From assembly GCA_964431835.1 (NCBI GenBank), contig CAYSKO010000004.1, positions 7,519-71,518 of the forward strand: 64,000 nucleotides of DNA, read 5' to 3'. Shown here piece after piece: positions 459-63,415 of the stretch. Both the position numbers and the translations under genes were made by a program. This DNA comes from an uncultured Planctomycetia bacterium. GTDB lineage: Bacteria; Omnitrophota; Gorgyraeia; 2-02-FULL-51-18. Numbering within the stretch: the first letter of the stretch is position 1; every line of letters begins with the position of its first letter. The notes under the pieces are model-generated. The model did no database searches. It was given only the letters and a program-made list of their open reading frames with translations, and was not told the origin of the DNA.

Positions 459-1890
459 CCTTGAGCCTCCCGATGGTGCGGCCGCCCAAAAGATCGATCA
501 GCTCGACGCCGTGATCGCGGAGAACTCCCTCGCGGATGCCGTCGGCGGCACCGAAGTCCTTCGCGGCCTTCGCGGCGGCGCGGCAGCGGATCGCGTCCTC
601 GATCACGCCCTGGATAGCACGGTTCGATTCCTCCTCCTTGCGGACGATCGCGTCGAAATCGGAGAAAAGATTGAACGCCTTGCCTGCGAGCTCGCGGAGC
701 TTCGCGGCGGCAGCGACGATCTTCGCCGGATCGTTGGTCTTCCGAGCCTGCTTCATGAGCGTCTGCATCGCGGTGATCGCCTCCGGCGTGTTGAAATCGT
801 TGTCCATGCAATTGCGGAAAGGTTCGTCGAAGCCGGCAACCGAAGCGGTGTCGGGCGCGACGCCGGCTTTGGCGAGATCGTGCGCTTCCTGGAAAAAATG
901 GAAGAACCGGCGCCACACCGCGCGCTCCATCGCGAGCTTCTCTTCGGTGAAATCAAGCGCGGCCTCGTAGTGAGTCGAGAGGAACACGAGTTTGAGGACG
1001 TCCGTGACGGATTCGGACGCAGGGATCCGCTTGCCGAACTCCGCGAGCGTGACGAAATTCTTGAGCGACTTCGACATCTTCACCTGGTCGACCGTGATGA
1101 GGCCGTGGTGGATCCAGTAGCGCGCGAGCGGCTTCCCCGAAAGTCCTTCGGACTGCGCGGTTTCGTTCTCGTGGTGCGGAAAAATGAGGTCCCGCCCGCC
1201 GCCGTGGATGTCGAACGATTCCGCGAGGTGCTTCTTCGACATCGCGGAGCATTCGATGTGCCAGCCCGGCCGGCCGTCTCCCCACGGGCTGGGCCACGAG
1301 GGCTCGCCGGGCTTCGCAGATTTCCAAAGAGCGAAATCGAGCGTATCGCGTTTCTTTTCGTTCTTTTCGAGACGCACGTTCTCGATGATCGACTCGATGT
1401 CCTGATGAGAAAGCTGTCCGTAGGAGGAGAACTTGCGGACCTCGAAATAAACGTCCCCGCCGGACGGGTAGGCCAGGCCCTTCAAGATGAGGCCCTCGAT
1501 GATCGCGATCATCTCGCCGATGTGCTCGGTGGCGCGCGGCTCGACGTCGGGCGCGAGGATCCCAAGGCGGTCGAGATCGTTCCGGTACATGTCGTAGTAG
1601 CGGGCGGAGACCTCGCGCGTCTCGGCCACCAGGTCCGCGGGCTTCGATTTCGCGGCCTTCTCGATGATCTTGTCGTCGACGTCGGTCACGTTCCGGACGA
1701 ACCGCACCGCGTAGCCCGAGAACGAGAACCAGCGGCGGATCACGTCGAAGACGTACGCCGAGCGCAGATGTCCCAAATGGGGTTCGTCGTAAACCGTCGG
1801 GCCGCAGACGTACATGCCGACACGGCCCGGCTCGAGCGGTTCGAACGGTTGTTTTTGTTTTTTGAGGGAATTGTAGAATCGGAGCGGCAT
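454..1890 (-). CDS. cysS: cysteine--tRNA ligase
   Basis: 478 aa; class I aaRS motifs HLGH and KMSKS; CysRS-like throughout. Confidence 0.93.
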   Translation of the reverse strand: MPLRFYNSLKKQKQPFEPLEPGRVGMYVCGPTVYDEPHLGHLRSAYVFDVIRRWFSFSGYAVRFVRNVTDVDDKIIEKAAKSKPADLVAETREVSARYYDMYRNDLDRLGILAPDVEPRATEHIGEMIAIIEGLILKGLAYPSGGDVYFEVRKFSSYGQLSHQDIESIIENVRLEKNEKKRDTLDFALWKSAKPGEPSWPSPWGDGRPGWHIECSAMSKKHLAESFDIHGGGRDLIFPHHENETAQSEGLSGKPLARYWIHHGLITVDQVKMSKSLKNFVTLAEFGKRIPASESVTDVLKLVFLSTHYEAALDFTEEKLAMERAVWRRFFHFFQEAHDLAKAGVAPDTASVAGFDEPFRNCMDNDFNTPEAITAMQTLMKQARKTNDPAKIVAAAAKLRELAGKAFNLFSDFDAIVRKEEESNRAIQGVIEDAIRCRAAAKAAKDFGAADGIREGVLRDHGVELIDLLGGRTIGRLKV

Positions 1891-1895
1891 AAGCC

Positions 1896-2615
1896 TTACT
1901 TGGAGGAACCTTTATCCCTCTCGAAATCCTTGAGTTCTTTTTCGATCTCCGCGATCTCGCGGTGGAGCTTGTCGAGGGCCTGCGTGAGAGGATCCGGCAG
2001 GCTCGTGTAATCCAGATTGGTGCCGCTGACGCGTTTACCCTCGCGGCGCGCGACGCGGCCGGGAACGCCGACAACGGTCGAATTCGGCGGCACGTCCTTC
2101 AGGACCACGGCGTTCGCGCCGACCGAAACGTTGTCTCCGATCGTGATGTTGCCGAGCACTTTCGCGCCTGCGCCGATGACGACGTTGTTTCCGATCGTCG
2201 GATGGCGCTTTCCCTTTTCCTTGCCGGTGCCGCCCAGCGTCGCGCCCTGGAAGATCGTCACGTTGTCGCCGACCACGGAAGTCTCTCCAATCACGACTCC
2301 CATTCCGTGGTCGATGAAAAAGCCCTTCCCGATCGTCGCGCCGGGATGGATCTCGATGCCGGTAAAGAAGCGTCCGATCTGCGAGATCGTGCGGGCGAAA
2401 AACGGCATGTTCGAGCGGTGAAAGAAATTACCGAGCCGGTGATAGAAGAGCGCGTGGATGCCCGGGTAGCTCAGGATGATCGTAAGACTGCCCGTGGCCG
2501 CGGGGTCCCGCTCCAAGGTCGCCTTGATCTCGTCCGCGAAAAAAAGGCGGTAAACGAGGATCTTGAACACGCCGAACGCCAAAAGGATGCAAAGCAGGTT
2601 GAGCACGAATTCCAT
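1896..2615 (-). CDS. cysE: serine O-acetyltransferase
   Basis: Internal ATG at 2613-2615 overlaps the ispDF stop (TGATG). C-terminal 220 aa closely resemble short Bacillus-type CysE (hexapeptide repeats, DPAA...YPG...HR). The ORF-track entry 1896..3008 over-extends upstream. An alternative GTG start about 15 codons downstream is possible. Confidence 0.85.
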
Positions 2616-4782: not shown

Positions 4783-5538
4783 CTATTTCCTCTTGAGGAG
4801 CTTCCAGGGGTGGGCCTTGATGTCCTTCACGAAGGCCTCGAGATCGCGCGCGATAGTGTCGTCCTTAAGAAGGCGCCCGACCGTCCCTTCGCCGTCGCGC
4901 AGGCGCGCGGTGACGACGCGGAGCGATTCGGCCGCTTCTTTCAGATCCGCGCTCGCTTCGTGCAGGTCCTTGAGCACCGCGTCCGCGCTTCCGAAAGCGC
5001 CCTCGGCTTTGCCGAACGTGCCGCGCACGGTGTTCTGGAACGTCGGATCGGCGACGACGTGATTCACGTTGTCGACCGTGTACTCGATTTTTTGGACCAG
5101 GCGGTTGCCCGACTCGGTAAGCTTTTCCATGTTAACCGGCTCGCGGCCGACGAGCGTTCCACCGTCCGATAAAACGCGCTTGCCGGCCGTGCCCGGGGTG
5201 ATTTCGACGTATTTCTCGCCGAGAAGCCCGAGACTCGATATCCGGATCTCGGCGTCGTCCTCGACGTACGCGCCTTGGGCTATCCAGGCGCCGATCTCGA
5301 CCTGCGTCTCGCCGTCGCGGCTGCGGATGACCTTGATATCCTTCACTTCGCCGACCGGGACGCCGGCCAGGCGCACGGGAGAACCGTTCTCGATCCCGCT
5401 CACGGAATCGAACATGAAACGGACGGTGTAGCCGGGTTTCAGACTGAAATCGCCCGCTTTGACGACGAGCCACGCAAGGGCGACAAGAGACGCAAGCACG
5501 AACACCCCGACCTTAAATTCAAGGTTGGACTTCTTCAT
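4783..5538 (-). CDS. mlaD: MCE-domain protein MlaD (phospholipid ABC transport, periplasmic substrate-binding component)
   Basis: 251 aa, N-terminal TM anchor plus a single MCE domain; follows the mlaF/mlaE genes. Confidence 0.8.
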   Translation of the reverse strand: MKKSNLEFKVGVFVLASLVALAWLVVKAGDFSLKPGYTVRFMFDSVSGIENGSPVRLAGVPVGEVKDIKVIRSRDGETQVEIGAWIAQGAYVEDDAEIRISSLGLLGEKYVEITPGTAGKRVLSDGGTLVGREPVNMEKLTESGNRLVQKIEYTVDNVNHVVADPTFQNTVRGTFGKAEGAFGSADAVLKDLHEASADLKEAAESLRVVTARLRDGEGTVGRLLKDDTIARDLEAFVKDIKAHPWKLLKRK

Positions 5539-5620: not shown

Positions 5621-6421
5621 TTAAGCGCCGGGCTCCGGCACGGGACGACCTTCGACCGATTCGAGACTCTTGAACTGGATGTCCGAGATCGGCCCAGTGG
5701 CCGAACCCGTTATAAATTGGCGGACGATGGGGTCGTCCGTGTTCCGGATCTCTTCCGGCTTACCCAAACGGATGATCCGGCCTTGGTACATCATGGCGAT
5801 GCGGGTTCCGATCTTGTAGGCGCTGGTCATGTCGTGGGTGACCGCCACTGACGTGACGTGAAGCTTGTCGTGGAGAGAGACGATGAGGTCGTTGATCGCG
5901 TCCGCCATGATGGGGTCGAGGCCCGTGGTGGGCTCGTCGTAAAGAAGGAACTCGGGGCGCATGCAGATCGCGCGCGCAAGCGCGACGCGCTTTTTCATGC
6001 CACCCGAGAGCTCCGACGGCTTGAGTTCGTGGATACCCTTAAGGCCGACGAGCTCGAGCGATTCCTCGACGCGTTCGCGGATGGCTCGGGAGGAAAGCGT
6101 CGTGTGCTCGAGGAGCCCGAAACCCACATTCTCCCCCACCGTCATCGAATCAAAGAGTGCGGAGAACTGAAAAAGCATACCAAACCGCATGCGAAGCTGG
6201 TTCCACTGCTTGCCGGAATAATGGGTAGTCGACTGGCCGTCGACAAGGATTTCCCCGTCGTCCGGCTTGAGAAGGCCGATCATATGTTTGAGGAGAACAC
6301 TCTTGCCGCAGCCCGAGCGGCCGATGATCACGAGCGTCTCTCCTTTTTCGACCTTGAGGTCGATCTTGTTCAGGATTTGTTTGCCGCGGAACGACTTGGA
6401 AACCTTCCGGACGTCGATCAT
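5621..6421 (-). CDS. mlaF: ABC transporter ATP-binding protein MlaF
   Basis: Walker A GRSGCGKS, ABC signature LSGGMKKRVALAR, Walker B LLYDEPT. Confidence 0.85.
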   Translation of the reverse strand: MIDVRKVSKSFRGKQILNKIDLKVEKGETLVIIGRSGCGKSVLLKHMIGLLKPDDGEILVDGQSTTHYSGKQWNQLRMRFGMLFQFSALFDSMTVGENVGFGLLEHTTLSSRAIRERVEESLELVGLKGIHELKPSELSGGMKKRVALARAICMRPEFLLYDEPTTGLDPIMADAINDLIVSLHDKLHVTSVAVTHDMTSAYKIGTRIAMMYQGRIIRLGKPEEIRNTDDPIVRQFITGSATGPISDIQFKSLESVEGRPVPEPGA

Positions 6422-7191
6422 AGGAAGTAGAACATGATCGTGAAGACCGCGTCCGAAACGATGATGAGGATGAACGACGTCACGACCGCGCGCGTGGTGG
6501 CCTGCCCGACCCCTTCGGCGCCGCCCTCGACGCGCATGCCCTCATAGCAGGCGACCGTGCAGATGATGGAAGCGAAAATAAGCGTCTTGAAGAGCCCAGA
6601 GAAAATGTCCTTCAGGACGAGCGGGAGGAAGGTCATCTTCATGTACATGGTGTGAGAGAGCCCGAGCTTGTAAACCCCGACGAGGTAACCGCCGCAGATG
6701 CCGACGAAGTCCGCGTAGATGGTGAGAAGCGGCAGCATGGTGAAAAGCGCGATGAAGCGCGGCGCAACCAGATACTTGATCGGGTTCGTCGCGAGAGTCT
6801 CGAGCGCGTCGATCTGCTCGGTCACCTTCATGGAGCCGAGTTCCGCCGCGATGGACGCGCCGACGCGGCCGGCGACGACGAGTGCAGTCAGGATCGGCCC
6901 GATCTCGCGCGTCATGGAGATGGCGACCAGGCTCGGAATGTACATTTCGGCATTCACCTTCTGCATCTGGTAGGCGCTTTGAAACGCGATGACGACGCCG
7001 ATGAAGAAAGCCGTGAGGGTCGAGATAAGGAAGGAGTCCACGCCGATCTTCACCATCTGCTCGACCAGCTGACGAGAGCGGAACGGAGGCATGGCGATCC
7101 AGAAAAGGGTCTTTAAGAGGAGCGTGAAAACGCCACCGGCGTACTCGACCGCGTCGACGGCGCGGCGCCCCACTGAAACGACGGCGCGCAT
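6418..7191 (-). CDS. mlaE: ABC transporter permease MlaE
   Basis: 257 aa polytopic permease of the MlaE/YrbE family; 4-nt overlap with mlaF. Confidence 0.82.
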   Translation of the reverse strand: MRAVVSVGRRAVDAVEYAGGVFTLLLKTLFWIAMPPFRSRQLVEQMVKIGVDSFLISTLTAFFIGVVIAFQSAYQMQKVNAEMYIPSLVAISMTREIGPILTALVVAGRVGASIAAELGSMKVTEQIDALETLATNPIKYLVAPRFIALFTMLPLLTIYADFVGICGGYLVGVYKLGLSHTMYMKMTFLPLVLKDIFSGLFKTLIFASIICTVACYEGMRVEGGAEGVGQATTRAVVTSFILIIVSDAVFTIMFYFL

Positions 7192-8629
7192 CAGAATTTC
7201 AACTTTCGTTCCACACCCACGAATTCCTCCCCTTCACGGACCTCGAACTTGAGCGCGTCGCGCGACTGGAGCCTGTACTCGAAACCGACCCCGACCCCCC
7301 GGCGCTCGTCGGAACGGAGGCCGTCCGCCCGCGGCACGTCGTCCTCTACGTTAGTACGGCGAAGCTGAAGCCGCGCATTATCCCCAAACGACCTCTGCAT
7401 GAGAAGGTCCGAACGGTCGCCCTTGCCTTTGGAGCGCGTGAGCTCCCAATCTCCCCAGACAACCGAATCCTGCTGGGCTTCGGACACGAGCGTGCGGTAC
7501 GTGCGCTCCCGGAACACGTCCGAGGCCTCGAACGTGCGGTCGGCGAAACGCATCGCGGTGCCGTCCTTGAGAAGAAGCCTCGAATCGTACAGTCGGAGGG
7601 TCGGGTACACGCCCTCGAAGGAAAGATCCATGGCCTCGAACGGGCGGCGCGATATCCAGCCGTTCCGGATGCGGGCGCGGCCGTCGTAGGACGGGTTGAG
7701 CGGGTCGCCCCACACGCGCAGGTCGAACGTCACGGAACCCGGCACGGAAAGACCTTTCGAGAGATTGAAAAGCGGGTCCAAGTTCGCGAGGCTGTATTCG
7801 TCCGCCGCGACGGCCCAGCGCACCTCGTCGTCGTCAAGGCGGTATTCGGCCGCAAAATCGATCCCGCCGAAAAGGTCCTCGGAGCGCACGTTGAAAAGAT
7901 GGCGGGAAAGCTCGAATTCGAAACGCGTCTCGTACGGAAGCGGGCGCCAATTGACCACCGTCCCTTCCGTCATGACCGTTCCCGTGAGCGAATCGTCGCG
8001 CGCGTCGGCGGCGGCGAGGAAGCGGGCTTCGACGACGACCTCGGTCGAGACGTCGAACGCGGCCATCTCGAAATGGTGGACCGCCATTTCCGCCCGGAGC
8101 CGTCCACCCTCAAAGCGGAGGTCTATCGGTCCGAAACGGCGGGCGCCGAATTCGAATTCCGCTCCCTCCGCGTGAATGACGACGTCCCGACCGCGAGTCA
8201 CGGCGGCACGGCGCATCCAGGTGAGGATCGGAAGGTCTCGGCGGAGCACGCGGAAGCGGGGTTCCCAGCGCAGGCGCGGCGAACGAAGCTCGATTTGAAC
8301 CTTGGCCACCGGGTCTTTCGAAATGAGATCGAGGAGGCGGTAGCGTAGGAGGATTTCTCTGCACTCGAAAAGGACGATGCGTCCGCCGGCCGAAGGCTCG
8401 CTAATTTCGAGGTCCTCGATCCTGACGAGGCCCGGGAAGCGTCCGCTCACGCGGCCGAAGCGCACGTCAAGGCCGGTCCCGCGGGCGATGGTGGTTTCGA
8501 TGCGGGAGACAAAGGCTTCGAAGACCGCCTCCTTCCTCAGGTGGAGAAAGGCCGCGGCGGCCGCGAACGCGGCCAGCGCCAAGAGCCAGCGCGCGGCCTT
8601 GCGTTTACGCTTGCCGGCGAGAGCCGATT

Positions 8630-8633
<4 letters not shown>
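7191..8633 (-). CDS. hypothetical membrane-anchored protein, co-operonic with mlaE/mlaF/mlaD
   Basis: 480 aa; N-terminal K/R-rich segment plus TM helix (LLALAAFAAAAAFL); Arg/Glu-rich body; C-terminus ends ...ERKLKF. Stop overlaps the mlaE start and start overlaps the clpC stop. No family recognised by eye. Confidence 0.5.
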
Positions 8634-11116
<2,483 letters not shown>

Positions 11117-11140
11117 GGGATGGGGTCTCCGTTACAAATG

Positions 11141-11146
11141 ATTATA
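11141..11146 (-). promoter_or_regulatory. possible -10 element (TATAAT on minus strand) in the 68-nt mcsB-clpC gap
   Basis: Exact TATAAT hexamer 25 nt upstream of the clpC ATG. No convincing -35 and no CtsR-like direct repeat seen. Confidence 0.25.
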
Positions 11147-11184
11147 AAGGAACAGCCCAAAGAAAGCTAGATTCTTGCCTTTTT

Positions 11185-12237
11185 TTAGCGTCCCTCGAGG
11201 CGGCGGCGGATCAGATTGGCCCGCTTCACGTCCCTTTGGGCGGAGCTTAAGATCCGCCCTTCGATCTTCTGGAGGTGGGCCGGCTGGGTCAGGATAAAGA
11301 GCTCGTTCACGGCCCGGCGGTCGATTTCGGCGAGAATTCCCATGTCCACGCCCAGGCGAACCATGGAAAGGAGGCCCAGGGTTTCCTTGGTGTTGATGAT
11401 GTGGGCGCTCTTCAGCGTCCCGTTCGAGCGCCAGATTTTGTCCTGCAGCATCTCGCGGTTCTGCTTCATGATCGTCTTTCGCGCGTTCTCCTCGTGTCCG
11501 ATCACCTGCCGGATGATGCGCTCCAGGTTGTCGATGATGTCCTCTTCGGAAGAGCCGAGCGTGACCTGGTTCGAGATTTGGAAGAAATTTCCCTCGGCCT
11601 CCGTGCCCTCGCCATAAAGGCCGCGCGCGGTCATGCCGAGCTTCGTGATCGCCTGTAGGACGCGGCTGATCTGTTTGGTCATGACGAGCGACGGTAAATG
11701 AAGCATTACGGAGGCGCGCAGGCCGGTGCCGGTGTTCGTTGGGCACGCGGTGAGGTAGCCCCAATCAGGATGAAACGCGAACTGCGCGCGCTTATGGAGC
11801 GCGTCGTCGACGCGGTTGGCGATGCGCCAGCATTCCTGCAGATTGAAGCCGGACTGCATGACCTGGATCCGGAGGTGGTCCTCCTCGTTGATCATGATGT
11901 TGACCACTTCCTTGTCGCCGATCACCACCGACTTGAACTCGGGGTGCACGATATGCTCGCGGCTGATAAGGTGCCGCTCGAGCAGGAACTGCTTGTCGAC
12001 GTCGTCGATCTCGGCCATGCGGACCGCCAAGCCGTTTTTCATGTACTCGGTGGAAAGAACCCCTTCCTCGAGCCGCTCGAGCGTCTCCTTCTCCTGCTTC
12101 TTGGTCGCCCAGTGCGAGAAGGGATACTTGTCGAGGTTGCGCGCGAGCCGGACCCGCGAGCTCATCACGATGTCGGAATTGGGGCCGGTGCCGCGAAGCC
12201 ATTCGCACGTCTGGCGGATCAGGTGGTCTACTTTCAT
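11185..12237 (-). CDS. mcsB: protein arginine kinase McsB (ATP:guanido phosphotransferase)
   Basis: 350 aa; guanido-kinase signature around LTACPTNTGTGLRASV. Confidence 0.85.
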   Translation of the reverse strand: MKVDHLIRQTCEWLRGTGPNSDIVMSSRVRLARNLDKYPFSHWATKKQEKETLERLEEGVLSTEYMKNGLAVRMAEIDDVDKQFLLERHLISREHIVHPEFKSVVIGDKEVVNIMINEEDHLRIQVMQSGFNLQECWRIANRVDDALHKRAQFAFHPDWGYLTACPTNTGTGLRASVMLHLPSLVMTKQISRVLQAITKLGMTARGLYGEGTEAEGNFFQISNQVTLGSSEEDIIDNLERIIRQVIGHEENARKTIMKQNREMLQDKIWRSNGTLKSAHIINTKETLGLLSMVRLGVDMGILAEIDRRAVNELFILTQPAHLQKIEGRILSSAQRDVKRANLIRRRLEGR

Positions 12238-12785
12238 GCGACTCCGCCTTTCTCGCCGGTCTTCTGCTGTTCCTTGATCTTTTTCTCGAGGAACTTGATC
12301 TTGTCGCGCAGCGTCGCCGCTTCTTCGAACTCCTCTTTCTTGACGGCTTTCAAGAGGTCTTGTTTGGCGGCGTCGAGCTCCTCGGCGAGCTTCACCGAGA
12401 GCTTCACTTCCTTCATCGCGACGGGGCTCGGCGACTTCCCGCCGTGCTGGTTCGAGCCGTGGATTCGTTTTAAAAGCGGCAGGAGGCTGACTTTAAACGC
12501 GCCATAGCACTCGCCGCAGCCGAGGCGGCCGATCTTCTTGAAGTCTTCGTAGGTGAGGCCGCACTGCGGGCATTTGTTCTTGGGAGGGGCGGCTCCGGGA
12601 ACGGCCGGCTCCTGCTCGACGTCCGAGAGCGCAGCCAGAAGGTCGGCGATGCCGAAGTGCTGCTCGACATCGGAGCCCTTCTGCTTGGCGCAGCCCTCGC
12701 AGAGATTGAGCTTCGTGATCTGCTCGTTGATGATCTCGGTCAGGTGGACCGTCGCCTTGTTTTTACCGCACTCGTCGCAGAGCAT
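12234..12785 (-). CDS. mcsA: McsA, activator of protein arginine kinase (4x CxxC zinc fingers + UVR-like motif)
   Basis: Internal ATG at 12783-12785 gives a 183-aa protein with CDEC...CEGC...CPQC...CGEC and a C-terminal UVR-like coiled coil. The track ORF 12234..13145 over-extends. Confidence 0.78.
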   Translation of the reverse strand: MLCDECGKNKATVHLTEIINEQITKLNLCEGCAKQKGSDVEQHFGIADLLAALSDVEQEPAVPGAAPPKNKCPQCGLTYEDFKKIGRLGCGECYGAFKVSLLPLLKRIHGSNQHGGKSPSPVAMKEVKLSVKLAEELDAAKQDLLKAVKKEEFEEAATLRDKIKFLEKKIKEQQKTGEKGGVA

Positions 12786-12793
12786 CGATTCCT

Positions 12794-13711
12794 TCAAGCG
12801 CGTTGTCCGGCCGGATCCTTCAGATCGTAGCGGGTCCCTTCGACGGCGGTCACTTTGCGGAATTCCTGCATGATGCGCCCGGTGGACGGGCCGGGGCGGC
12901 CCTCCCCGATGATACGGTTGTCGATTTTCACGACGGGAACGATCTCGGCGCCGGTTCCGGTGAGAAAAACTTCGTCGGCGGTGTAAAGATCGTGGCGCGT
13001 AAAGACTTCCTCCGAGACGCGAAGTCCGAGCTTCGTGCCGAGCGCCATGACGACGTCTCGCGTGATGCCCTTCAAGATGCCCACGTACGGAGGAGGCGTC
13101 ACGAGCGCGCCACCCTTCACGTAGAAGATGTTCTCGCCGGTGCATTCAGTGACGTAGCCTTGCGCGTTAAGCATGAGCGCTTCGCTCACGCCCGCGTTCG
13201 TGGCTTCGATCCGCGCGAGGATGTTGTTGAGATAGTTGAGCGTCTTGAGCTGAGGGTTCACGGCCTCGACGTGGTTGCGCACCGTCGCGGCAGTCACGAT
13301 CGCGATCCCCTTCTCGTACAGCTCCTTCGAGTACATCGCGATCTTGTCGGCGATGATGAAGAGAGTGGCCTTCGCGCATTTGCGGGGGTCGAGCCCGAGG
13401 TCGCCAGGCCCGCGGGTGACGACGAGGCGGATGTACGCGTCGCGCAGCGAGTTCGCCTGAAGTGTTTCGATGACGGCGCGCTCGAGCGCGTCCTTCGGGA
13501 GCGGAACTTCGAGCATGAGCGTGTGTGCGGATTCGTAAAGGCGATCCAGGTGCTCGGAGAGCTTGAACACGACGCCGTCGTACGAGCGAATTCCCTCGAA
13601 CACCCCGTCGCCGTACAAGAGGCCGTGGTCGAACACGCTCACGACCGCCTTCTCGCGGTCCACGAGACGGCCGTCCAGCCAGATTTTCAGGTTCCCCTTC
13701 GCGTCGCTCAC
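12794..13711 (-). CDS. ilvE: branched-chain amino acid aminotransferase
   Basis: GTG at 13709-13711 preceded by GGGAGG; product starts (M)SDAKGNLKIWLDGRLV, the typical IlvE N-terminus. GTGA overlap with the lolD stop. The track ORF 12794..14275 over-extends into lolD. Confidence 0.85.
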   Translation of the reverse strand: MSDAKGNLKIWLDGRLVDREKAVVSVFDHGLLYGDGVFEGIRSYDGVVFKLSEHLDRLYESAHTLMLEVPLPKDALERAVIETLQANSLRDAYIRLVVTRGPGDLGLDPRKCAKATLFIIADKIAMYSKELYEKGIAIVTAATVRNHVEAVNPQLKTLNYLNNILARIEATNAGVSEALMLNAQGYVTECTGENIFYVKGGALVTPPPYVGILKGITRDVVMALGTKLGLRVSEEVFTRHDLYTADEVFLTGTGAEIVPVVKIDNRIIGEGRPGPSTGRIMQEFRKVTAVEGTRYDLKDPAGQRA

Positions 13712-14406
13712 CGTTCCTCCCAATCCCGTTTCTCGATGTTCCAAACCCGGTCCGTCATCTTCGCGATCCGCTCGTCGTGCGTGACGAGAACCACCGTACA
13801 CTTTTCCTTCCGGAAAACGTCCGACAAAAGCTCCGCGACGTCGCGGCCGGTCGCCGCGTCCAGATTCCCCGTCGGCTCGTCGCAGAAAAGGATTTCGGGG
13901 TCGTTGATGAGCGCCCGCGCGATCGCCACGCGCTGCTGCTCGCCGCCCGAAAGCTCGCTTGGGAAATGCGTCGCGCGGTCCTTGAGACCCACGCGCTCGA
14001 GGAGCCCCGCCGCGCGGTCGTGCGCCCGGTCGCGCTCCGACTTCTCTTTTCGAAGAAGAAGAGGCAGCATCACGTTCTCGAGCGCCGTGAATTCCGGCAA
14101 AAGATGGTAGAACTGAAAAACGAAACCGATCTTCCTGTTCCGGAAAGCGGCTTTTTCGTTCTCGCCGAGGGCGTGGACGTCGACGCCGGACAAGAGCACT
14201 TTGCCGGAATCGGCCCGGTCGAGGCCAGAAAGCACGTTCAAAAGCGTCGTCTTTCCGGAACCCGAAGGACCCCAAATCGCGACGCCCTGTCCCTTCGGAA
14301 CCTTCAAATTTATCCCCGAAAACACCTCGAGGCGGCGACTGCCGTCCCAGTATACCCTGCTCAGACCGGAGGCTTCAATACTTGTTGTTTCGACCGCATC
14401 ACTCAT
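13708..14406 (-). CDS. lolD: lipoprotein-releasing system ATP-binding protein LolD
   Basis: 232 aa ABC ATPase (GPSGSGKTT, LSGGEQQRVAIARAL), adjacent to a LolC/E-type permease. Confidence 0.85.
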   Translation of the reverse strand: MSDAVETTSIEASGLSRVYWDGSRRLEVFSGINLKVPKGQGVAIWGPSGSGKTTLLNVLSGLDRADSGKVLLSGVDVHALGENEKAAFRNRKIGFVFQFYHLLPEFTALENVMLPLLLRKEKSERDRAHDRAAGLLERVGLKDRATHFPSELSGGEQQRVAIARALINDPEILFCDEPTGNLDAATGRDVAELLSDVFRKEKCTVVLVTHDERIAKMTDRVWNIEKRDWEER

Positions 14407-15577
14407 AGCGAAGAGCCCGTACAGGGTCCAAGCGGCCGGCCATCCACGCGGGATAGAACGCCGAAACGAGGCTGAGGACGATGGCGGTCGCGACGACCAG
14501 GAACGTATCCTGGAGGTCCATCCGCACCGGAATGCGGTTCACGTAATAAATCTCCTTGGGCAGCTCGAGCAGCGGGTAGCGGTCAAGCGCCCAGCAGAGC
14601 GTTGAACCGACCGCGAGCCCCGCAGCCGCTCCGGCGACGCCGATAAAGAGGCCGTCGTACACGAAAATCCGCACGAGCGCACCCGGCGACGCGCCCAGCG
14701 CCTTCAACACGCCCATGTCCTTCGTCTTGTCCATGACGAGAATCGTGAGGCTGCCGGCGATATTGAGACACGCGACGAGGATGATGAGCGCGAGGATCAG
14801 GAACATCACCACCTTCTCGAGCTTGAGCGCCGCGAAAAGCATGCGGTTCATGTCCATCCAGGTCCGCACGCGGAATCCTGAGAGTTTGGGAGCGAGGGAT
14901 TTTTTGAACGCGTCCGCGCGGTCGGGGTCATCGAGCGCGACAGAGACACCGGTCACCGCCTCCCCCATTCCGTAAAGACTCTGCGCGTTGGCGAGGTTGA
15001 GGAAAAGGAGGTTCGCGTCGTACTCGTACATGCCGGACGAAAAAATTCCCTCCACGCGGAACGTGCGCGGCTTGTCCTGCTTCTGCGTGAGGATCTTGAA
15101 TTCGGAACCCATGACGAGCCCGGCGCGCTTGGCGAGTTCGAGGCCGAGCACCGCGCCGTCGGGGGCGTCGGTGAGCGCACCGCGCGAGACATGGCGCCCG
15201 AACCGGGAGACTTTCTCTTCGGCCTTCGGGTCGAGGCCGCGCACAAGGACACCGGTTCCCCAGTCGCCGCTTTGGAGGAGCGCCTGGCCCTCGACGTACG
15301 GCGCGGCGCCGACCGCGCCCGGTAAGGCGGCGAGCTTCGCGGTGAGCGCGGCGTGCCCCGTGAGCAACGGATCCTTTTCGACGGAGACGTGCGCGTGCAG
15401 GCCAATGATTCGTTCCTTCAAGTCCGAATCGAAGCCGTTCATCACGGCGAGGGTGGTGATGAGGGCAGCGACACCGACGGCGATGCCGAGAATGGAGATA
15501 GTTCCGATGATTCCGACGAAGGGGTGGCGCCGTTTGGAGAAGATATAGCGCCTCGCGATCAGGCGCTCCGCGCTCAT
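14399..15577 (-). CDS. lolC: lipoprotein-releasing system permease (LolC/LolE family, FtsX-like)
   Basis: 392 aa; N-terminal TM, large periplasmic loop, C-terminal FtsX-like 3-TM bundle. A single permease gene next to lolD. Confidence 0.8.
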   Translation of the reverse strand: MSAERLIARRYIFSKRRHPFVGIIGTISILGIAVGVAALITTLAVMNGFDSDLKERIIGLHAHVSVEKDPLLTGHAALTAKLAALPGAVGAAPYVEGQALLQSGDWGTGVLVRGLDPKAEEKVSRFGRHVSRGALTDAPDGAVLGLELAKRAGLVMGSEFKILTQKQDKPRTFRVEGIFSSGMYEYDANLLFLNLANAQSLYGMGEAVTGVSVALDDPDRADAFKKSLAPKLSGFRVRTWMDMNRMLFAALKLEKVVMFLILALIILVACLNIAGSLTILVMDKTKDMGVLKALGASPGALVRIFVYDGLFIGVAGAAAGLAVGSTLCWALDRYPLLELPKEIYYVNRIPVRMDLQDTFLVVATAIVLSLVSAFYPAWMAGRLDPVRALRYE

Positions 15578-17046
15578 GCGCCTTTCTCGGGCTTCATCTG
15601 CGGGAAAAGAATGACTTCGCGAATCGAGGGCTGGGTAACGAGAAGCATCGTGAGGCGGTCGATCCCGATTCCCAGACCGCCGGCGGGCGGCATGCCGTGC
15701 TCGAGCGCGTAGAGGAAGTCCTCGTCGAGCGCCTGCTCTGGTTTTTTGCCCGCTTCTTTCAATTCTTCCATAAAGCGCTCGCGCTGCTCGATCGGGTCGT
15801 TCTGCTCCGAATAGCCGTTGGCGACTTCCATTCCGCCCACGTACAACTCGAAGCGGTCGGCCAGGTGCGGGTTCTTTTTGTTCTTGCGCGCAAGCGGCGA
15901 GATTTCAGCGAAGTATTCGGTGACGAAGAAGGGCTCGAGCACGGAGGCGTCGCCGGAAGGATTCACCGGCAGAAGGTCGCCGACGATGTTGATGATCTGC
16001 GTGCGCGAGACGTTCTGGCCCTTCACGTCGACGCCCTTCTCCTTCAGCTTCACGATCCACGAGGCGAGCTCGTCCTCGGGCACGATGCCGAAATGCTCTT
16101 TCATGAGACCCGCGAAAGACAGGCGGTGCCACTTCGAAAGGTCAAGCGTCTTGCCCTCGCCGGCAGGGATCTGCAGCTTACCGAACGCAGCGAGCGCCGC
16201 GTTCTTCACGATCTCTTCGCAGAGATCCATCACGTTATTCACGTCGTGGTACGCCGTGTAGACCTCGAGCATCGTGAACTCGGGGTTGTGGCGCGTCGAG
16301 ATGCCTTCGTTACGGAAACTTTTGTTCACCTCGTAGACCTTCTCGTACCCGCCGACGAGAAGCTTCTTGAGATAAAGTTCGGGAGCGACGCGCAGGAAAA
16401 GCGGAATGTCGAGCGCCTCGTGGTGAGTCGCGAACGGCTTGCCGGCCGCGCCGCCGGGGATCGGATGCATCATCGGGGTCTCAACTTCGAGATAGCCTTT
16501 GTCGTCCAGGGTCTTTCGGATCGAACGCACGATCTGCGACCTCTTCTTGAAAATCTCTCGCGATTCCTCGTTCGCGATGAGGTCGAGGTACCGGTGGCGA
16601 TAACGCTTCTCGACGTCCTTCAAACCGTGCCATTTCTCGGGCATCGGGCGAAGGCTCTTCGAAAGGAGGTGGATGCGGGACGCGCGGATCGATATCTCCC
16701 CCGTCTTCGTCGTGAAGAGCTCGCCTTCGACGCCGATCCAGTCGCCGAGATCGAGAAGGTCGAACACCGCGCGGTCGGTTTCGGGGAGCTCCTCTTTCTT
16801 CACGAAAAGCTGCACGCGGCCGGAGTCATCGCGCAGGTCGCAGAAGACGGTCTTTCCCATGAACCGCATCGCCGAAAGGCGGCCGGCCGAAACGACGGAT
16901 TTCTTGTCGGCGAAGCCCGCGACCGTGGCCGCGATCGGCTCGGTTTTGGGGAACGCGCCGCCGAACGGATCGATCCCGAGCGCCTTTAAGGCCTCGAGTT
17001 TCCGGTAACGTTCCTTCAGGAGATCGTTCGTCTGGAGATCGCTCAT
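15574..17046 (-). CDS. lysS: lysine--tRNA ligase (class II)
   Basis: 490 aa; N-terminal OB anticodon-binding fold and class II catalytic core; ATG at 17044-17046. Confidence 0.92.
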   Translation of the reverse strand: MSDLQTNDLLKERYRKLEALKALGIDPFGGAFPKTEPIAATVAGFADKKSVVSAGRLSAMRFMGKTVFCDLRDDSGRVQLFVKKEELPETDRAVFDLLDLGDWIGVEGELFTTKTGEISIRASRIHLLSKSLRPMPEKWHGLKDVEKRYRHRYLDLIANEESREIFKKRSQIVRSIRKTLDDKGYLEVETPMMHPIPGGAAGKPFATHHEALDIPLFLRVAPELYLKKLLVGGYEKVYEVNKSFRNEGISTRHNPEFTMLEVYTAYHDVNNVMDLCEEIVKNAALAAFGKLQIPAGEGKTLDLSKWHRLSFAGLMKEHFGIVPEDELASWIVKLKEKGVDVKGQNVSRTQIINIVGDLLPVNPSGDASVLEPFFVTEYFAEISPLARKNKKNPHLADRFELYVGGMEVANGYSEQNDPIEQRERFMEELKEAGKKPEQALDEDFLYALEHGMPPAGGLGIGIDRLTMLLVTQPSIREVILFPQMKPEKGA

Positions 17047-17087
17047 AAGCGCCTTATTCTATTCGACAATCGCCCCGGATGCAACAC

Positions 17088-17306
17088 GGGGAAGTTTGTG
17101 TCTTTTTCTTCTCCGGGACCACAAAGCGTTCAATTCGGCGAAAACCGTAAGCGTGGCTCCCTACGAAGAAAAAGACACAAACTTCCCCCGTAGCGGCCCC
17201 GCGAGGCGATCCGCGTCTTTCCTTCGTAGGGATCCACGCTTACGGTTCTGGTCGAATTTAGGCCTTTGTGGTCCCGTAGAAGGAAAGTCGCGGATCAGCT
17301 CGCGGG
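17088..17306. repeat. composite element of three interleaved inverted repeats (IR1 perfect 24 bp; IR2 about 56 bp imperfect; IR3 25 bp with 3 mismatches)
   Basis: IR1 17088-17111 = reverse complement of 17165-17188 (24/24). IR2 17113-17168 vs 17222-17277, core ccgtaagcgtggctccctacgaag 23/24, about 48/56 overall. IR3 17198-17222 vs 17282-17306 (22/25). Spacers 53, 53 and 59 nt. Arm order is 1L, 2L, 1R, 3L, 2R, 3R. Locally AT-richer than the flanks; no T-tracts follow any stem. Confidence 0.85.
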
Positions 17307-17309
17307 AAC

Positions 17310-37115: not shown

Positions 37116-38034
37116 CGACCCCCACCCTCGCCCGGTTCAAAGACAGTTCCAAGATTTTAACACAAAGCGCGGGAAAGTCGATTCCCGCCGCCTTGGCCGC
37201 TTTGGGGAGCAGGCTCTTGCCCGTGAGGCCGGGAATGGTGTTGATCTCGAGCACGTACGGCTCCCGGTCGTCTTCCGACAGGATCACGTCGACGCGGCCC
37301 ATGACCTCGCAGCCGATCGCGCGGTAAGCCGTGAGCGCCGCGGACCCGACGCGGGCGGCTTCGTCGGCCGAAAGACGCGCCGGCGCCTCGTAGCGCGTGC
37401 CCGACTCTCCGTACTTCGCCTCGTAATCGTAAAATTTACGGCCAGGGATCACCTCCACCACCGGCAGCGCCTCGTCGCCCAAAATGCCGACCGTCAGCTC
37501 GCGGCCCTTCACGAAGCGATCCACCACCGCGTGGTCTGAGAAACGGAACGCCTCCTCGAGCGCCGCCTGAAAACCCGACGGGTCGCGCACGATCGTCACG
37601 CCACAGCTCGACCCGGACGTCGCGGGCTTCACGACGAACGGCGCGCCGAACGGCGCGCGGCCGGGAACAGCGTCTTTAGCGATGACGCGGAAATCGGGAA
37701 CGCGGATGCCCGCCTCCTTAAAAATGGCTTGGGCGCGCGACTTGTCGAAAGAGCGCTCGCTCGCAGCGGCCCCCGCCCCCGTGTAACGGATGCCCTCCGC
37801 CTCGAGGAGGCGTTGGATCTGCCCGTCCTCGCCGAAGGTTCCGTGAAGCGCGATGAACGCGGCCTTGGCTCCCGAGGCGCGAAGCTCCGAAAGGAAATCC
37901 CCAACGGGATCGACCACGACGACTTCGAATCCGGCGGAACGCAGCGCTTCGGCCACGGCCTTTCCGGACACGAGCGAGACTTCGCGTTCGCACGACGGGC
38001 CGCCCGCGAGGACGGCGATTTTTTTGGGAATCAC
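37108..38034 (-). CDS. ddl: D-alanine--D-alanine ligase
   Basis: GTG at 38032-38034 overlapping the murC-murB stop (GTGA); product (M)IPKKIAVLAGGPS...; ATP-grasp; 309 aa. The track ORF 37108..38238 over-extends. Confidence 0.85.
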   Translation of the reverse strand: MIPKKIAVLAGGPSCEREVSLVSGKAVAEALRSAGFEVVVVDPVGDFLSELRASGAKAAFIALHGTFGEDGQIQRLLEAEGIRYTGAGAAASERSFDKSRAQAIFKEAGIRVPDFRVIAKDAVPGRAPFGAPFVVKPATSGSSCGVTIVRDPSGFQAALEEAFRFSDHAVVDRFVKGRELTVGILGDEALPVVEVIPGRKFYDYEAKYGESGTRYEAPARLSADEAARVGSAALTAYRAIGCEVMGRVDVILSEDDREPYVLEINTIPGLTGKSLLPKAAKAAGIDFPALCVKILELSLNRARVGVDG

Positions 38035-40316
38035 AGGATCTTCACCTCGGTTTCGAGATCGACGTCGAATTTTTTCTTCACTTCCTCCTGCACCTCGCGG
38101 ATGAGCCGCACCACGTCCTCGGAAGACGCGCCGCCCAGATTCACGATGAAATTGGCGTGACGCGCGGATACCTGCGCGCGCCCGACGGTCCGCCCCTTCA
38201 GACCCGCATCGTCGATAAGCTTCCCGGCGCTCGCGCACTGCGCGTTGTCCGGGTTCTTGAACATGCAGCCCGCGCTCGGATGCTGGAGATCCTGGGTTTT
38301 GAAGCGGTAGTCGCGGTATTCCTCCAGGCGCTTCAACGTCTCGGCTTTTTCGGCTGCAGGCAGGCGGAACGCCGCTTCCGCGATCACGACGTCCGTGAGT
38401 CCAGAAGCCCGGTAACGGAACGGGATTTCCTCGCGCTTCATCGCGAACGGCCGGCCGTCGAAACGCACCCCGGCCACTCTCTCGACGCGCGCGTCGATTG
38501 ATTGCTTATGGCTTCCCGCGTTCATCGCGACGGAACCGCCGACGTTCCCCGGGATGCCCGCGAGGAATTCGCAGCCACCTAAGCTCCGCTCCACAGCGAA
38601 CTGGATGAACACGGTGTTCGGTACGCCCGCGCGCGCGACCACGAGGCCGTCCGTCTCCACGCGGATCTCCTTCCAATACGGCCCAGCGAGATGGATCACC
38701 GCGCCGTCCACCCCGTCGTCGGGCGCGACGAGATTGGACCCCGCGCCGATCACCTGGACGGAGATGCCGCTCCGGCGGCAGAAGTCGAGGGCGCGTGCCA
38801 AGTCGTCGACATCCTCCGGTTCGAGCCAGTACTCGGCCGGCCCACCGACCTTCAGCATCGTATGCTTGGAGAGAGGCTCCTCCCGGAGCGTCTTGCCCCG
38901 GAATCCTGGAAAAAGAGGCGCGCGGTCGGGCGACGGCGCGCGGCGCTCGGCAAGCCATTCGGCCGCCTTGTGCGCGATCTGATAAACGTCGCCGGCGCCG
39001 AGCGCGAGAAAAAGATCGCCGGGCTTAAGCTCGGCGAGCACCGCCTCTTCGAGCTTCGCGCGTTCCACGTAGCGCGCGTCGGCGTGGCCGGTCGCCGTGA
39101 CCGCCGCGGCGAGGCGCTCCCCGCTCACGCCCTCGATCGGCGTCTCGCTTGCGGCGTAGACGTCTGTCACGAAAAGCTTATCCACGTCGCCGAAGCTCAC
39201 GGCGAACCCTTCGAGAAAGTCGCGCGTGCGCGTATAGCGGTGCGGCTGGAACGCGGCGAAAAGGCGACGGGGCTTAAGGGCGCGTGCGGCGGCCAGCGTC
39301 TTCTGAAGCTCGGTGGGATGGTGAGCGTAATCGTCAACGATCGTGAATTCGGCGTCTTCGAAACGCACGTCGAAGCGGCGGCCGGCGCCGAGGTATTTCC
39401 CGAGGGCGCGCGAGATCGTCTCGAAGGGAATCCCGATTTTAAGTCCCACGCCGATCGCCGCGAGCGAATTGAGCACGTTGTGCTTACCGATGATGCGAAG
39501 ATGCACGATCCCGAGGCACAGGCCGTCCTTCCAGGCCCGGTACGAGACACCCCGTTTTCCTCCGGGACATTCGACGACGTCGGTCGCGTAGATGCCGGCT
39601 TTGCGGGGCTCGAGCCCGTAGAGGGTCGCGCGGCGCAGGCGCTCACCCGCGAGCTTGGCCACGCGCGGATCGTCGCCGCAGCCAAACCACTCGCCCTCGC
39701 GCGGAAGGCGCTCGATGAACGCGCGGAATGCGTCCTCGACACGCTCCACCGTGCCGAAATGGTCCAGGTGCTCGGCTTCCACGTTTGTGACGACCGCAAG
39801 GTGGGGGGCGAAGCGCAGGAACGACGAGTCGCTCTCGTCGGCCTCGATGACGATCTCGGGGCCGCTGCCCACGACGGCGTTCCCGCCGAACGAGATCACG
39901 AGCCCGCCGACGACGATCGACGGATCGCGGCCCGCCTCCTGCAATACGGTGCCGACGAGCGCGGTGGTCGTGGTCTTTCCGTGCGTGCCAGCGATCGCGA
40001 TGGTGCGCTTGTCGCGGCAGATGTCGGCGAGCGCCTCGGCGCGGTGCATGATCTGGAGTCCCCTCTCGCGCGCCGCGCGGCGCTCGGGATGATCCTCAGG
40101 GATCGAAGAGGAATAAACGACCACGTCCGCGCCGTTGATATGCGAGGCGTCGTGTCCGATCATGATCCGCATGCCGGAGCGCTCCATCGACGTCAGAAGT
40201 TCGGTCTTCTTCACGTCGCTGCCCTGCACGTTCCAGCCGCGCGACTGGTAGATTCGCGCGATGCCGCTCATGCCGATGCCGCCGATACCGATCAGATGCA
40301 CCCGTTTGGCGTTCAT
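38031..40316 (-). CDS. murC: fused UDP-N-acetylmuramate--L-alanine ligase / UDP-N-acetylenolpyruvoylglucosamine reductase (MurC-MurB fusion)
   Basis: 761 aa; residues 1-470 are MurC (GIGGIGMSG, GTHGKTTTT); residues 480-761 are MurB (FAD-binding, GAGSNL). Confidence 0.85.
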   Translation of the reverse strand: MNAKRVHLIGIGGIGMSGIARIYQSRGWNVQGSDVKKTELLTSMERSGMRIMIGHDASHINGADVVVYSSSIPEDHPERRAARERGLQIMHRAEALADICRDKRTIAIAGTHGKTTTTALVGTVLQEAGRDPSIVVGGLVISFGGNAVVGSGPEIVIEADESDSSFLRFAPHLAVVTNVEAEHLDHFGTVERVEDAFRAFIERLPREGEWFGCGDDPRVAKLAGERLRRATLYGLEPRKAGIYATDVVECPGGKRGVSYRAWKDGLCLGIVHLRIIGKHNVLNSLAAIGVGLKIGIPFETISRALGKYLGAGRRFDVRFEDAEFTIVDDYAHHPTELQKTLAAARALKPRRLFAAFQPHRYTRTRDFLEGFAVSFGDVDKLFVTDVYAASETPIEGVSGERLAAAVTATGHADARYVERAKLEEAVLAELKPGDLFLALGAGDVYQIAHKAAEWLAERRAPSPDRAPLFPGFRGKTLREEPLSKHTMLKVGGPAEYWLEPEDVDDLARALDFCRRSGISVQVIGAGSNLVAPDDGVDGAVIHLAGPYWKEIRVETDGLVVARAGVPNTVFIQFAVERSLGGCEFLAGIPGNVGGSVAMNAGSHKQSIDARVERVAGVRFDGRPFAMKREEIPFRYRASGLTDVVIAEAAFRLPAAEKAETLKRLEEYRDYRFKTQDLQHPSAGCMFKNPDNAQCASAGKLIDDAGLKGRTVGRAQVSARHANFIVNLGGASSEDVVRLIREVQEEVKKKFDVDLETEVKIL

Positions 40317-53883: not shown

Positions 53884-53936
53884 AAGTAAAACGAATCCGC
53901 CCTCCGCCAAGCGATCGCTCGCTTCACGGAGGACGG
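53884..53936 (-). terminator. probable terminator hairpin immediately 3' of rnpB
   Basis: Imperfect long hairpin (ccgccctccg...cggaggacgg with inner agcgatcgct palindrome), followed on the minus strand by ATTCGTTTTACTT. Confidence 0.4.
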
Positions 53937-53939
53937 GGC

Positions 53940-54315
53940 TTTGCAGGCCTGTAAGCCGGGTTCTGTGGGAGCCACTTAAGGCCCCGACGATCATTTATCT
54001 AGTCCCACCGTCTCCGGCGGGATCGCCTCCGCCTTTCGGCAGATGTAGCGGTTAACCCGGGAATCTTGGCGAGAGAGAGTCTCGCGCGGGAGCCGCCTTT
54101 CGGCCGCCCCGTTTCTTCCCCTATTCAACCTTGCTCCGCGTGGAGATTGCCCGTTTCACCCTCTCGCCGAAGCGAGAGACTCGTCTCTGTTGCTCTAATC
54201 CTTCCGTCCCGTTTCCGGACGGAGGCGGGTGTTACCCGCCACGCTCTCTTCTGGGAGCCCGGACTTTCCTCGGCGGCCACCTTGCGGCGACCGACGCGAC
54301 CGTCCAGCCTGCAAA
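53940..54315 (-). ncRNA. rnpB: RNase P RNA, bacterial type A
   Basis: Minus strand carries P4 strands GAGGAAAGTCCGGGCTCC and ACAGAACCCGGCTTA, GGGTAACACCCGCC, GGAGCAAGGTTGAATAGGGG; P1 pairs TTTGCAGGC with GCCTGCAAA; about 376 nt. Track ORFs 54066..54347, 54131..54322, 54195..54515 and 54229..54423 are spurious. Confidence 0.9.
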
Positions 54316-55464: not shown

Positions 55465-55490
55465 TTGCCCTTTCTCTAAGTTAGAAAAAG

Positions 55491-55567
<77 letters not shown>

Positions 55568-55586
55568 AGAAAAACCGCGTCAAACG

Positions 55587-55660
55587 TGGGCCCGCCTGGA
55601 CTTGAACCAGGGACCGGCTCATTATGAGTGAGCTGCTCTAACCGACTGAGCTACGGGCCC
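55587..55660 (-). tRNA. tRNA with CAT anticodon (elongator Met or, more likely, lysidine-modified Ile2); CCA not encoded
   Basis: GGGCCCGTAGCTCAGTCGGTTAGAGCAGCTCACTCATAATGAGCCGGTCCCTGGTTCAAGTCCAGGCGGGCCCA; G1:C72, C4:G69, C5:G68; T-arm CTGGTTCAAGTCCAG as in E. coli ileX. Confidence 0.85.
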
Positions 55661-63339: not shown

Positions 63340-63415
63340 TGGTGGACCTGAGCGGTCTCGAACCGCTGACCTCCTCGTTGCGAACGAGGCGCTCTACCAA
63401 CTGAGCTACAGGCCC
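63340..63415 (-). tRNA. tRNA-Ala (anticodon CGC), CCA encoded
   Basis: GGGCCTGTAGCTCAGTTGGTAGAGCGCCTCGTTCGCAACGAGGAGGTCAGCGGTTCGAGACCGCTCAGGTCCACCA; G3:U70 alanine identity pair present. Confidence 0.9.

Follow-up and report, generated by a model that had tools for sequence, protein, structure and literature searches.

A predicted McsA-McsB-ClpC arginine-phosphorylation module without ctsR in a conserved housekeeping gene cluster of Candidatus Omnitrophota

Introduction

The use of arginine phosphorylation to tag proteins for degradation is still portrayed as a Gram-positive trait. The locus described here, in which mcsA, mcsB and clpC lie side by side in a genome with diderm markers, raises the question of what such a set of genes does in this kind of cell, how it could be controlled without the repressor CtsR and whether it was acquired recently. 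It was found in a 64-kb stretch of contig CAYSKO010000004.1, from an uncultured bacterium assigned to Omnitrophota (hereafter the window, meaning the whole stretch analysed), and all genes of the module are on the (-) strand. A previous sequence-only reading of this DNA had described a McsA-McsB-ClpC module that lacks ctsR and is embedded in a lysS-lolCD-ilvE unit, had implied that this is unusual, and had proposed profile searches for McsA and McsB and a phylogeny of McsB. From the analyses reported below we consider it likely that the locus encodes a functional, vertically inherited McsA-McsB-ClpC module for phosphoarginine (pArg)-dependent degradation, which would operate without CtsR, be co-expressed with housekeeping genes and be controlled mainly at the protein level.

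Identity of the three proteins

The 350-aa product of the middle gene carries the ATP:guanido phosphotransferase domain PF00217 (E 3e-69), the sole Pfam domain found, together with a precomputed match to the C-terminal domain PF27454 (McsB_C), and scored 458.7 bits over residues 12-348 with the NCBIfam model NF002194 'protein arginine kinase' (cut-off 385); with the Bacilli-specific model NF053707 it reached 425 bits, below the cut-off of 500. Residues 2-348 align with the McsB structures of Bacillus subtilis and Geobacillus stearothermophilus (PDB 8WTB/6TV6/6FH1) at E 3e-95, and in the PDB search McsB structures scored 320 bits, as against 100-165 bits for arginine (phosphagen) kinases. The catalytic NEEDH motif and cysteine described for McsB (PMC11046695) are kept, at 117-121 and as Cys165 (in CPTN; C167 in B. 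subtilis), and are invariant or nearly so among 46 diverse McsBs. R335 and D336 align with R337/D338 of B. subtilis, the pArg receptor pair mutated in PMC8370763, and R339, a further residue of the pArg receptor, is invariant among the same 46 proteins. By these features the protein is identified as McsB. A generic guanidino kinase is excluded by the NF002194 score, the McsB_C domain and the structure scores: the catalytic domain PF00217 is common to the protein and to the phosphagen kinases (of free arginine or creatine), but the protein lacks their N-terminal substrate-specificity domain and has the McsB-specific C-terminal dimerization domain PF27454.

An identical McsB protein, in the same gene order, is present on the JGI metagenome contig Ga0163151_10000538, and among the 120 best McsB homologs (80-100% identity) the named ones are almost all from Candidatus Omnitrophota/Omnitrophica and annotated by NCBI as 'protein arginine kinase'. 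McsB is also named in metagenome-assembled genomes (MAGs) of Gemmatimonadales.

The 183-aa protein encoded upstream has the features expected of McsA, the activator of McsB. Its residues 1-175 align with B. subtilis McsA (PDB 8WTB_B, E 2e-32), and the parts by which McsA is defined (PMC11046695), namely two four-Cys zinc domains (Z1, Z2), the L3 loop and the C-terminal coiled coil, are all present, with CxxC pairs at residues 3, 29, 72 and 90, the HxGK loop as HGGKSP and a UVR motif at 140-174. The HxGK loop, the UVR-type coiled coil and each of the eight zinc cysteines line up with their counterparts in 8WTB_B.

Natural McsA-McsB fusion proteins occur in metagenomes (P0151, 502 aa; P0210, 544 aa), in which the N-terminal 100-180 residues align with McsA of the window (E 1e-16 and 3e-26) and McsB makes up the C-terminal part, so that they lend Rosetta-stone support to a functional unit of the two proteins. 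By length, P0224, P0247 and P0263 follow the same pattern.

The 828-aa protein is recognized as ClpC by two Clp_N domains, two AAA+ modules, a UVR-type M-domain (PF02151, 431-466), Walker A motifs at 222 and 559, Walker B motifs at 289 and 627, and an IGF ClpP-docking loop at 685-687. Its two GTEH motifs (29-32 and 105-108) contain Glu31 and Glu107, equivalents of E32 and E106, the key pArg-binding residues of the ClpC N-domain (PMC12583610). The N-domain matches those of ClpC1 and ClpC, including 5HBN, at E 1e-54 to 1e-52; an NCBIfam search with the protein surfaced no ClpC model, and ClpB and ClpA models stayed under their cut-offs. The sequence-only reading had thus named all three genes correctly: its McsB by both PF00217 and NF002194, its clpC next to mcsA-mcsB by the domain and motif set, and its McsA by the four CxxC pairs and the UVR-like motif, with a full-length profile match whose score is weighed below.

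Gene order across phyla and the absence of ctsR

The window proteins and CtsR were mapped onto two sets of relatives, the first consisting of 80 loci out of more than 600 matching stretches (each GTDB species was represented by one genome, and a diverse McsB alignment served as seed) and the second of 31 close relatives from metagenomes. Relatives were read to flanks of ±10 kb, and the resulting gene neighbourhoods are given in Table 1.

Table 1. Genes accompanying mcsB in related loci (loci with the gene/scorable loci)
Clade	mcsA directly upstream	clpC directly downstream	ilvE upstream	lolD upstream	mlaE downstream	ctsR
Omnitrophota	35/35	31/31	27/28	27/28	22/23	0/45
Verrucomicrobiota	23/23	17/20	18/20	10/19	2/11	0/24
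Planctomycetota, anammox	3/3	3/3	0/3	0/3	0/3	0/3
Planctomycetota, other	17/20	0/18	0/20	0/19	0/13	0/21
Eisenbacteria-type (L078, L066, L047)	3/3	3/3	0/3	2/2	0/2	0/3
Bacillota	11/11	11/11	0/9	0/8	0/10	11/11

The whole gene order from lysS to mla recurs in Omnitrophota loci, and the Eisenbacteria-type loci have the order lysS-lolC-lolD-mcsA-mcsB-clpC. In Bacillota ctsR is always directly upstream of mcsA, whereas none of 97 diderm loci (the diderm clades of Table 1 and one Aerophobetes locus) has it; given this count, McsAB(-ClpC) without ctsR is the norm in the sampled diderm phyla. In the Planctomycetota and Aerophobetes loci examined, the genes upstream of mcsA are metabolic or housekeeping genes and none is a regulator.

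Within the window itself, tblastn with G. stearothermophilus CtsR (from PDB 3H0D) found no CtsR-like open reading frame (ORF) in the 64 kb (best E 33), and a scan for the CtsR operator (RGTCAAANANRGTCAAA direct repeat) that tolerated up to 3 mismatches gave 0 matches, where 1.95 would arise by chance in 64 kb. The CIRCE element likewise had 0 matches in the window. A scan for sigma-32-type sites returned a single 11/13 match, which sits inside the mcsB coding sequence and was judged to be due to chance.

Most of what had been read from the sequence at the outset stands. The gene order and junctions lysS-lolC-lolD-ilvE-mcsA-mcsB-68 nt-clpC are exact by ORF map and junction sequences; ctsR is missing at the head of the module, where the ilvE stop lies 8 nt before mcsA; and the CtsR direct repeat is lacking, also in the clpC leader. 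The embedding of the module in the lysS-lolCD-ilvE unit, visible in overlaps and short junctions, is strengthened by the sigma-70 promoter that relatives have before lysS. Two points need qualification: Lnt, LptE and Mla are present as diderm markers, but 'LolCDE' was slightly overstated, since the window has a single LolC/E-family permease gene, and the lone TATAAT in the 68-nt gap exists but is not conserved in relatives. The implied unusualness has to be given up, as the arrangement without ctsR is the rule in Omnitrophota and Verrucomicrobiota and diderm McsAB/ClpC has already been published.

Some of the related loci deserve separate mention. In four loci of Isosphaeraceae, Singulisphaera and Gemmataceae (L037, L054, L055 and L056) mcsB is preceded by a tandem pair of mcsA-like genes and has no clpC next to it, which is a planctomycete variant of the module. 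On the metagenome contig Ga0137405_1381062 (L113) two partial McsB matches stand head to head, at 1313-1966 (-) and 1989-2585 (+), probably as an assembly chimera or an inverted duplication. Several ENA 'binchicken' MAGs (loci L005, L007, L011-L013, L043 and L065), labelled Planctomycetales or Bifidobacteriaceae, group with Omnitrophota or Verrucomicrobiota by McsB sequence and full synteny, and for this reason the taxonomy of these MAG records looks unreliable.

Promoters and the probable transcription unit

Of 26 Omnitrophota loci, 19 have a site in the 160 nt upstream of lysS that fits TTGACA-17-TATAAT at 10/12 or better, most of them at 11-12/12, and before lolC, lolD, ilvE, mcsA, mcsB, clpC and mlaE only 0-3 loci each have one (2/41 for clpC). 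As consensus promoters are frequent before lysS and scarce in front of the internal genes, it is most likely at lysS that the unit starts, under a promoter of housekeeping type.

In the lnt-lysS gap of the window there are also three inverted-repeat pairs, with arms of 69, 35 and 31 nt, which overlap to form a nest that folds at -130 kcal/mol (z -10.3). This nest occurs once in the window and is not present in relatives, whose lnt-lysS gaps are only 74-125 nt, and it looks like a lineage-specific insertion, similar to a miniature inverted-repeat transposable element (MITE) or a repetitive extragenic palindrome (REP), that displaced or degraded the lysS promoter. A role as attenuator is ruled out by its absence from relatives.

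Descent of the module

In a neighbour-joining tree of 107 McsB sequences, midpoint-rooted and built without bootstrap and without Chlamydiota, the clades follow the phyla, namely Bacillota, Verrucomicrobiota, Planctomycetota including the anammox group, and Omnitrophota, which stand beside Planctomycetota and outside Bacillota; the McsB phylogeny proposed earlier thus disfavours a recent transfer. The G+C content at third codon positions (GC3) is ~0.8-0.86 for clpC and mcsB, like that of their neighbours, and GC3 of mcsA was read from neighbouring frames. Among close relatives ClpC and McsB are the best-conserved proteins of the cluster, with mean identities of 86% and 84%, as against 68% for LysS and 60% for LolC, and the 11-gene synteny, which is partly common to Verrucomicrobiota, holds even in Omnitrophota lineages in which McsB identity has fallen to ~50%. 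Since the tree follows phyla, GC3 fits the neighbours and synteny outlasts divergence, the data argue for vertical descent and not recent transfer, with module genes that would be old and under strong constraint.

A proposed degradation route and its alternatives

The genes observed, their motifs and synteny, and the patterns of promoters and phylogeny suggest the following route. McsA would bind and activate McsB via its second zinc domain and loop, and McsB would phosphorylate arginines of proteins that are unfolded or aberrant. This tag would be bound by the ClpC N-domain in its two pArg pockets, binding of the tag would also activate ClpC, and ClpC would thread the substrate into ClpP, presumed to be encoded elsewhere in the genome. 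The three genes would be internal members of the unit lysS-lolC-lolD-ilvE-mcsA-mcsB-clpC-(480-aa gene)-mlaEFD. Expression would probably be constitutive, because there is no CtsR gene or operator and the unit stands in most Omnitrophota under a consensus sigma-70 promoter; control would be post-translational, via McsA and McsB autophosphorylation or pArg feedback, and not by CtsR de-repression. We infer kinase activity and pArg recognition from residue conservation by way of the Bacillus structures (PMC8370763, PMC11046695, PMC12583610) and of Chlamydia ClpC-ClpP1P2 (PMC10128030), and co-transcription and constitutive expression are to be taken in the same conditional sense.

Several points weigh against this reading. 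Neither clpP nor ywlE was found within the window or in 115 related loci, the search for YwlE being a tblastn with a B. subtilis YwlE query verified against 1ZGG. McsA scored 158.8 bits with NF053706, under the cut-off of 210, over 1-181 of 182 positions; as this model is named for Bacilli and the phylum is divergent, we read the score as divergence. The McsB tree has the limits given with it. The lysS promoter of the window is degenerate (8/12), where relatives have a consensus site at the equivalent position, and although it is likely to be the start of the transcription unit in this genome, the actual start is uncertain because of this degeneracy and of the ~200-nt palindromic insertion just upstream. 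Finally, clpC could be transcribed separately from the TATAAT in its leader.

If clpC were transcribed alone from that leader, mcsAB and clpC would be two units and the 'module' merely a neighbourhood. The leader holds TAGCTT-17-TATAAT (8/12), with a perfect -10 element and a weak -35 element at 17-nt spacing, 24 nt before the clpC ATG, and TATAAT-like strings are also seen in the spacers of L012, L092, L095, L096, L103 and L108. However, the spacer ranges from 0 to 150 nt in relatives and in most is within 0-40 nt, too short for a promoter (mostly 10-40 nt with a ribosome-binding site only), and its sequence is not conserved; the scarcity of sites of at least 10/12 before clpC, noted above, also speaks against it, and in the window spacer there is no terminator after mcsB, no CtsR box, no stable fold (z -0.18) and no Rfam family. 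Moreover, an internal promoter would supplement read-through from upstream, not replace it. At best, the site is a weak, lineage-specific internal promoter, and a separate clpC unit is less likely than not.

It is rather unlikely that McsAB serves mainly as a regulatory kinase that switches off some other transcription factor, such as HrcA or an unknown repressor, and not as a general degradation tagger. Such a role has a precedent in Bacillus, where McsB inactivates CtsR by phosphorylation (Fuhrmann 2009, as cited in PMC10128030), and stress induction of mcsB and its clp neighbour is reported for Methylacidiphilum (PMC8024496), implying some regulator in bacteria of the Planctomycetota-Verrucomicrobiota-Chlamydiota (PVC) type. 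Nevertheless, among the 97 diderm loci there is none with an adjacent regulator gene, the upstream gene being ilvE, an HPS-RraA fusion, truA or lnt, and the window has no CIRCE element. The tight and near-universal linkage to clpC in Omnitrophota, Verrucomicrobiota and the anammox group, together with the intact ClpC pArg pockets, favours degradation.

We regard it as unlikely, too, that McsB targets a ClpC whose main work is that of a disaggregase or chaperone, independent of ClpP. Chlamydial and Bacillus ClpC are chaperone-like in vitro (PMC10128030) and the window contains no clpP, but the IGF docking loop is intact and chlamydial ClpC with ClpP1P2 is an active protease on pArg-casein (PMC10128030). 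A recent acquisition of the module from Bacillota, as a 'Gram-positive island' that lost ctsR on insertion, is highly improbable, for although the mcsA-mcsB-clpC order is identical, ClpC is 58-61% identical to Paenibacillus ClpC and transfer has been speculated for the tRNA-flanked mcsAB of Chlamydia (PMC10128030), Omnitrophota do not fall inside Bacillota in a McsB tree that follows phyla, the 11-gene synteny is kept across deep McsB divergence and partly in Verrucomicrobiota, GC3 is like that of the flanking genes and no mobile-element genes flank the module.

Neighbouring genes and other features of the window

The coordinates of the cluster and of other features are collected in Table 2. 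Upstream of lysS, beyond a 263-nt gap, are lnt, secA and prfB.

Table 2. Features of the window
Feature	Position	Strand	Remarks
lysS (lysine-tRNA ligase)	15574-17046	(-)	first gene of the chain; NF001756 584 bits (cut-off 468); PF00152 and PF01336
lolC/E-family lipoprotein-release permease gene	14399-15577	(-)	4-nt overlap with lysS stop
lolD-like ABC ATPase gene	13708-14406	(-)	8-nt overlap with lolC
ilvE (class IV branched-chain aminotransferase)	12794-13711	(-)	GTG start within GTGA overlapping lolD stop; NF006185 450 bits (cut-off 363)
mcsA	12234-12785	(-)	183 aa; start 8 nt past ilvE stop
mcsB	11185-12237	(-)	350 aa; ATGA overlap with mcsA stop
mcsB-clpC spacer	11117-11184	(-)	68 nt; TATAAT at 11146-11141; GGAG ribosome-binding site
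clpC	8630-11116	(-)	828 aa; AAA+ unfoldase
480-aa protein gene	7191-8633	(-)	start and stop overlap clpC and mlaE
mlaE	6418-7191	(-)	Pfam MlaE; downstream end of conserved cluster
mlaF	5621-6421	(-)	Pfam ABC_tran; downstream end of conserved cluster
mlaD	4783-5538	(-)	Pfam MlaD; downstream end of conserved cluster
Weak sigma-70-like promoter	17056..17084	(-)	TTGCAT-17-TAGAAT, 8/12; ends 9 nt before lysS ATG
Palindromic nest	17088-17306		in lnt-lysS gap
lnt-lysS gap	17047-17309		263 nt
761-aa ORF	38031-40316	(-)	apparent murC-murB fusion
CT398-like protein gene beside RNase H gene	54751-55500 and 53936-54315	(-)	coiled-coil/zinc-ribbon protein
tRNA-Val and tRNA-Met	55491-55660
tRNA-Ala	63340-63415

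The lolC/E-family permease matches TIGR02212 with E 2.9e-102 and 342.7 bits, slightly below the cut-off of 362, and has MacB_PCD and FtsX domains; the best match of the lolD-like ATPase is the LolD model TIGR02211, with 261 bits, below the cut-off of 307.75. The window as a whole is core genome, with cysS, ispDF, mla, secA, prfB, uvrC, murJ, holA, lptE, a BamD-like lipoprotein gene, rib genes, the dcw cluster, RNase P RNA, rpoD and dnaG. Its diderm markers are Lnt, the LolC-type permease with LolD, LptE, the BamD/YfiO-like lipoprotein and MlaE/F/D.

The gene of the 480-aa protein belongs to the conserved cluster, since its start and stop overlap clpC and mlaE. The protein is membrane-anchored and restricted to Omnitrophota (58 homologs), has no Pfam domain and evolves fast, with 38% identity among close relatives versus 86% for ClpC. 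Its AlphaFold2 (AF2) model (pLDDT 79.5) consists of a helix at the N terminus and, after it, a long body that is all-beta. Searches by Pfam, by homology and by Foldseek with the AF2 model against PDB gave no significant match, and one homolog has a precomputed PF13116 match; the 480-aa protein may be an envelope or lipid-transport protein.

A functional meaning of the linkage lolC-lolD-(ilvE)-mcsA-mcsB-clpC-(membrane beta-protein)-mlaEFD in Omnitrophota and Verrucomicrobiota, whose lolCD-mcsAB-clpC core occurs in Eisenbacteria-type loci too, can be imagined as a coupling of pArg-directed ClpC proteolysis with outer-membrane lipoprotein and lipid trafficking, which we consider improbable. If there were such coupling, McsB might, for example, tag envelope precursors that failed in export, and the linkage would be more than inherited gene order.

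Elsewhere in the window, the 761-aa ORF within the dcw cluster combines Mur ligase domains (MurC-like) with the FAD-binding and C-terminal domains of MurB, and is apparently a fusion of murC and murB. The gene of the CT398-like protein, whose family is named after a Chlamydia protein, adjoins that of RNase P RNA (RF00010, 170 bits).

Comparison with known systems

In Omnitrophota, Verrucomicrobiota and Planctomycetota the complete McsA-McsB-ClpC set thus appears as an old core feature, strongly conserved and never with an adjacent ctsR, and two phyla have it built into a housekeeping lysS-lol...mla cluster. No new kind of system is revealed and the finding, although solid, is fairly ordinary: McsAB and ClpC in diderms are known already, and the novelty, which is modest, lies in the phylum-wide and cross-phylum synteny and in the promoter pattern. 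In our literature search neither McsB of Omnitrophota nor the lol-mcs-clpC-mla linkage turned up as the subject of a paper, and Gram-negative homologs find mention in PMC11046695, where their activity is not established. These free-living diderm lineages are offered for the study of CtsR-independent control of the kinase.

A close published diderm system is that of Chlamydia trachomatis, for which McsAB (CT676/CT675) and ClpC have been described (PMC10128030, PMC11708050) and in which ClpC with ClpP1P2 degrades pArg-casein, the pArg tag being required (PMC10128030). Like the organism studied here it is a diderm of the wider PVC group that has McsA, McsB and ClpC without CtsR, but its mcsAB form a separate, tRNA-flanked operon unlinked to clpC, whereas the three genes of the window are contiguous in a conserved 11-gene cluster. 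The present results give context to the work on Chlamydia and argue against a recent transfer into the PVC group, with Chlamydiota themselves outside the sample.

Also close are the ilvE-mcsA-mcsB-clpC clusters of Verrucomicrobiota (for example Methylacidiphilum Minf_0242/0241; loci L023-L082), which mostly have ilvE upstream and clpC downstream, in 10/19 loci have lolD upstream and have no ctsR, as in the window, but in which mla is rarely close downstream (Table 1) and McsB is 45-50% identical. The adjacency of mcsB and clp had been noted in the verrucomicrobium Methylacidiphilum, where these genes are reported to be stress-induced (PMC8024496), whereas the window shows only a promoter of constitutive type.

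The class III heat-shock operon ctsR-mcsA-mcsB-clpC of Bacillota (B. subtilis, G. stearothermophilus, Staphylococcus aureus) encodes the same three proteins in the same order and with the same domain architecture. The locus of the window differs from it in having no ctsR gene or CtsR operator, in lying inside a lysS-lolCD-ilvE...mla housekeeping unit, which in relatives has a sigma-70 promoter, and in its diderm host, but it keeps the NEEDH motif and the catalytic cysteine, the pArg receptor, the eight zinc cysteines of McsA, the two pArg pockets of ClpC and the IGF loop.

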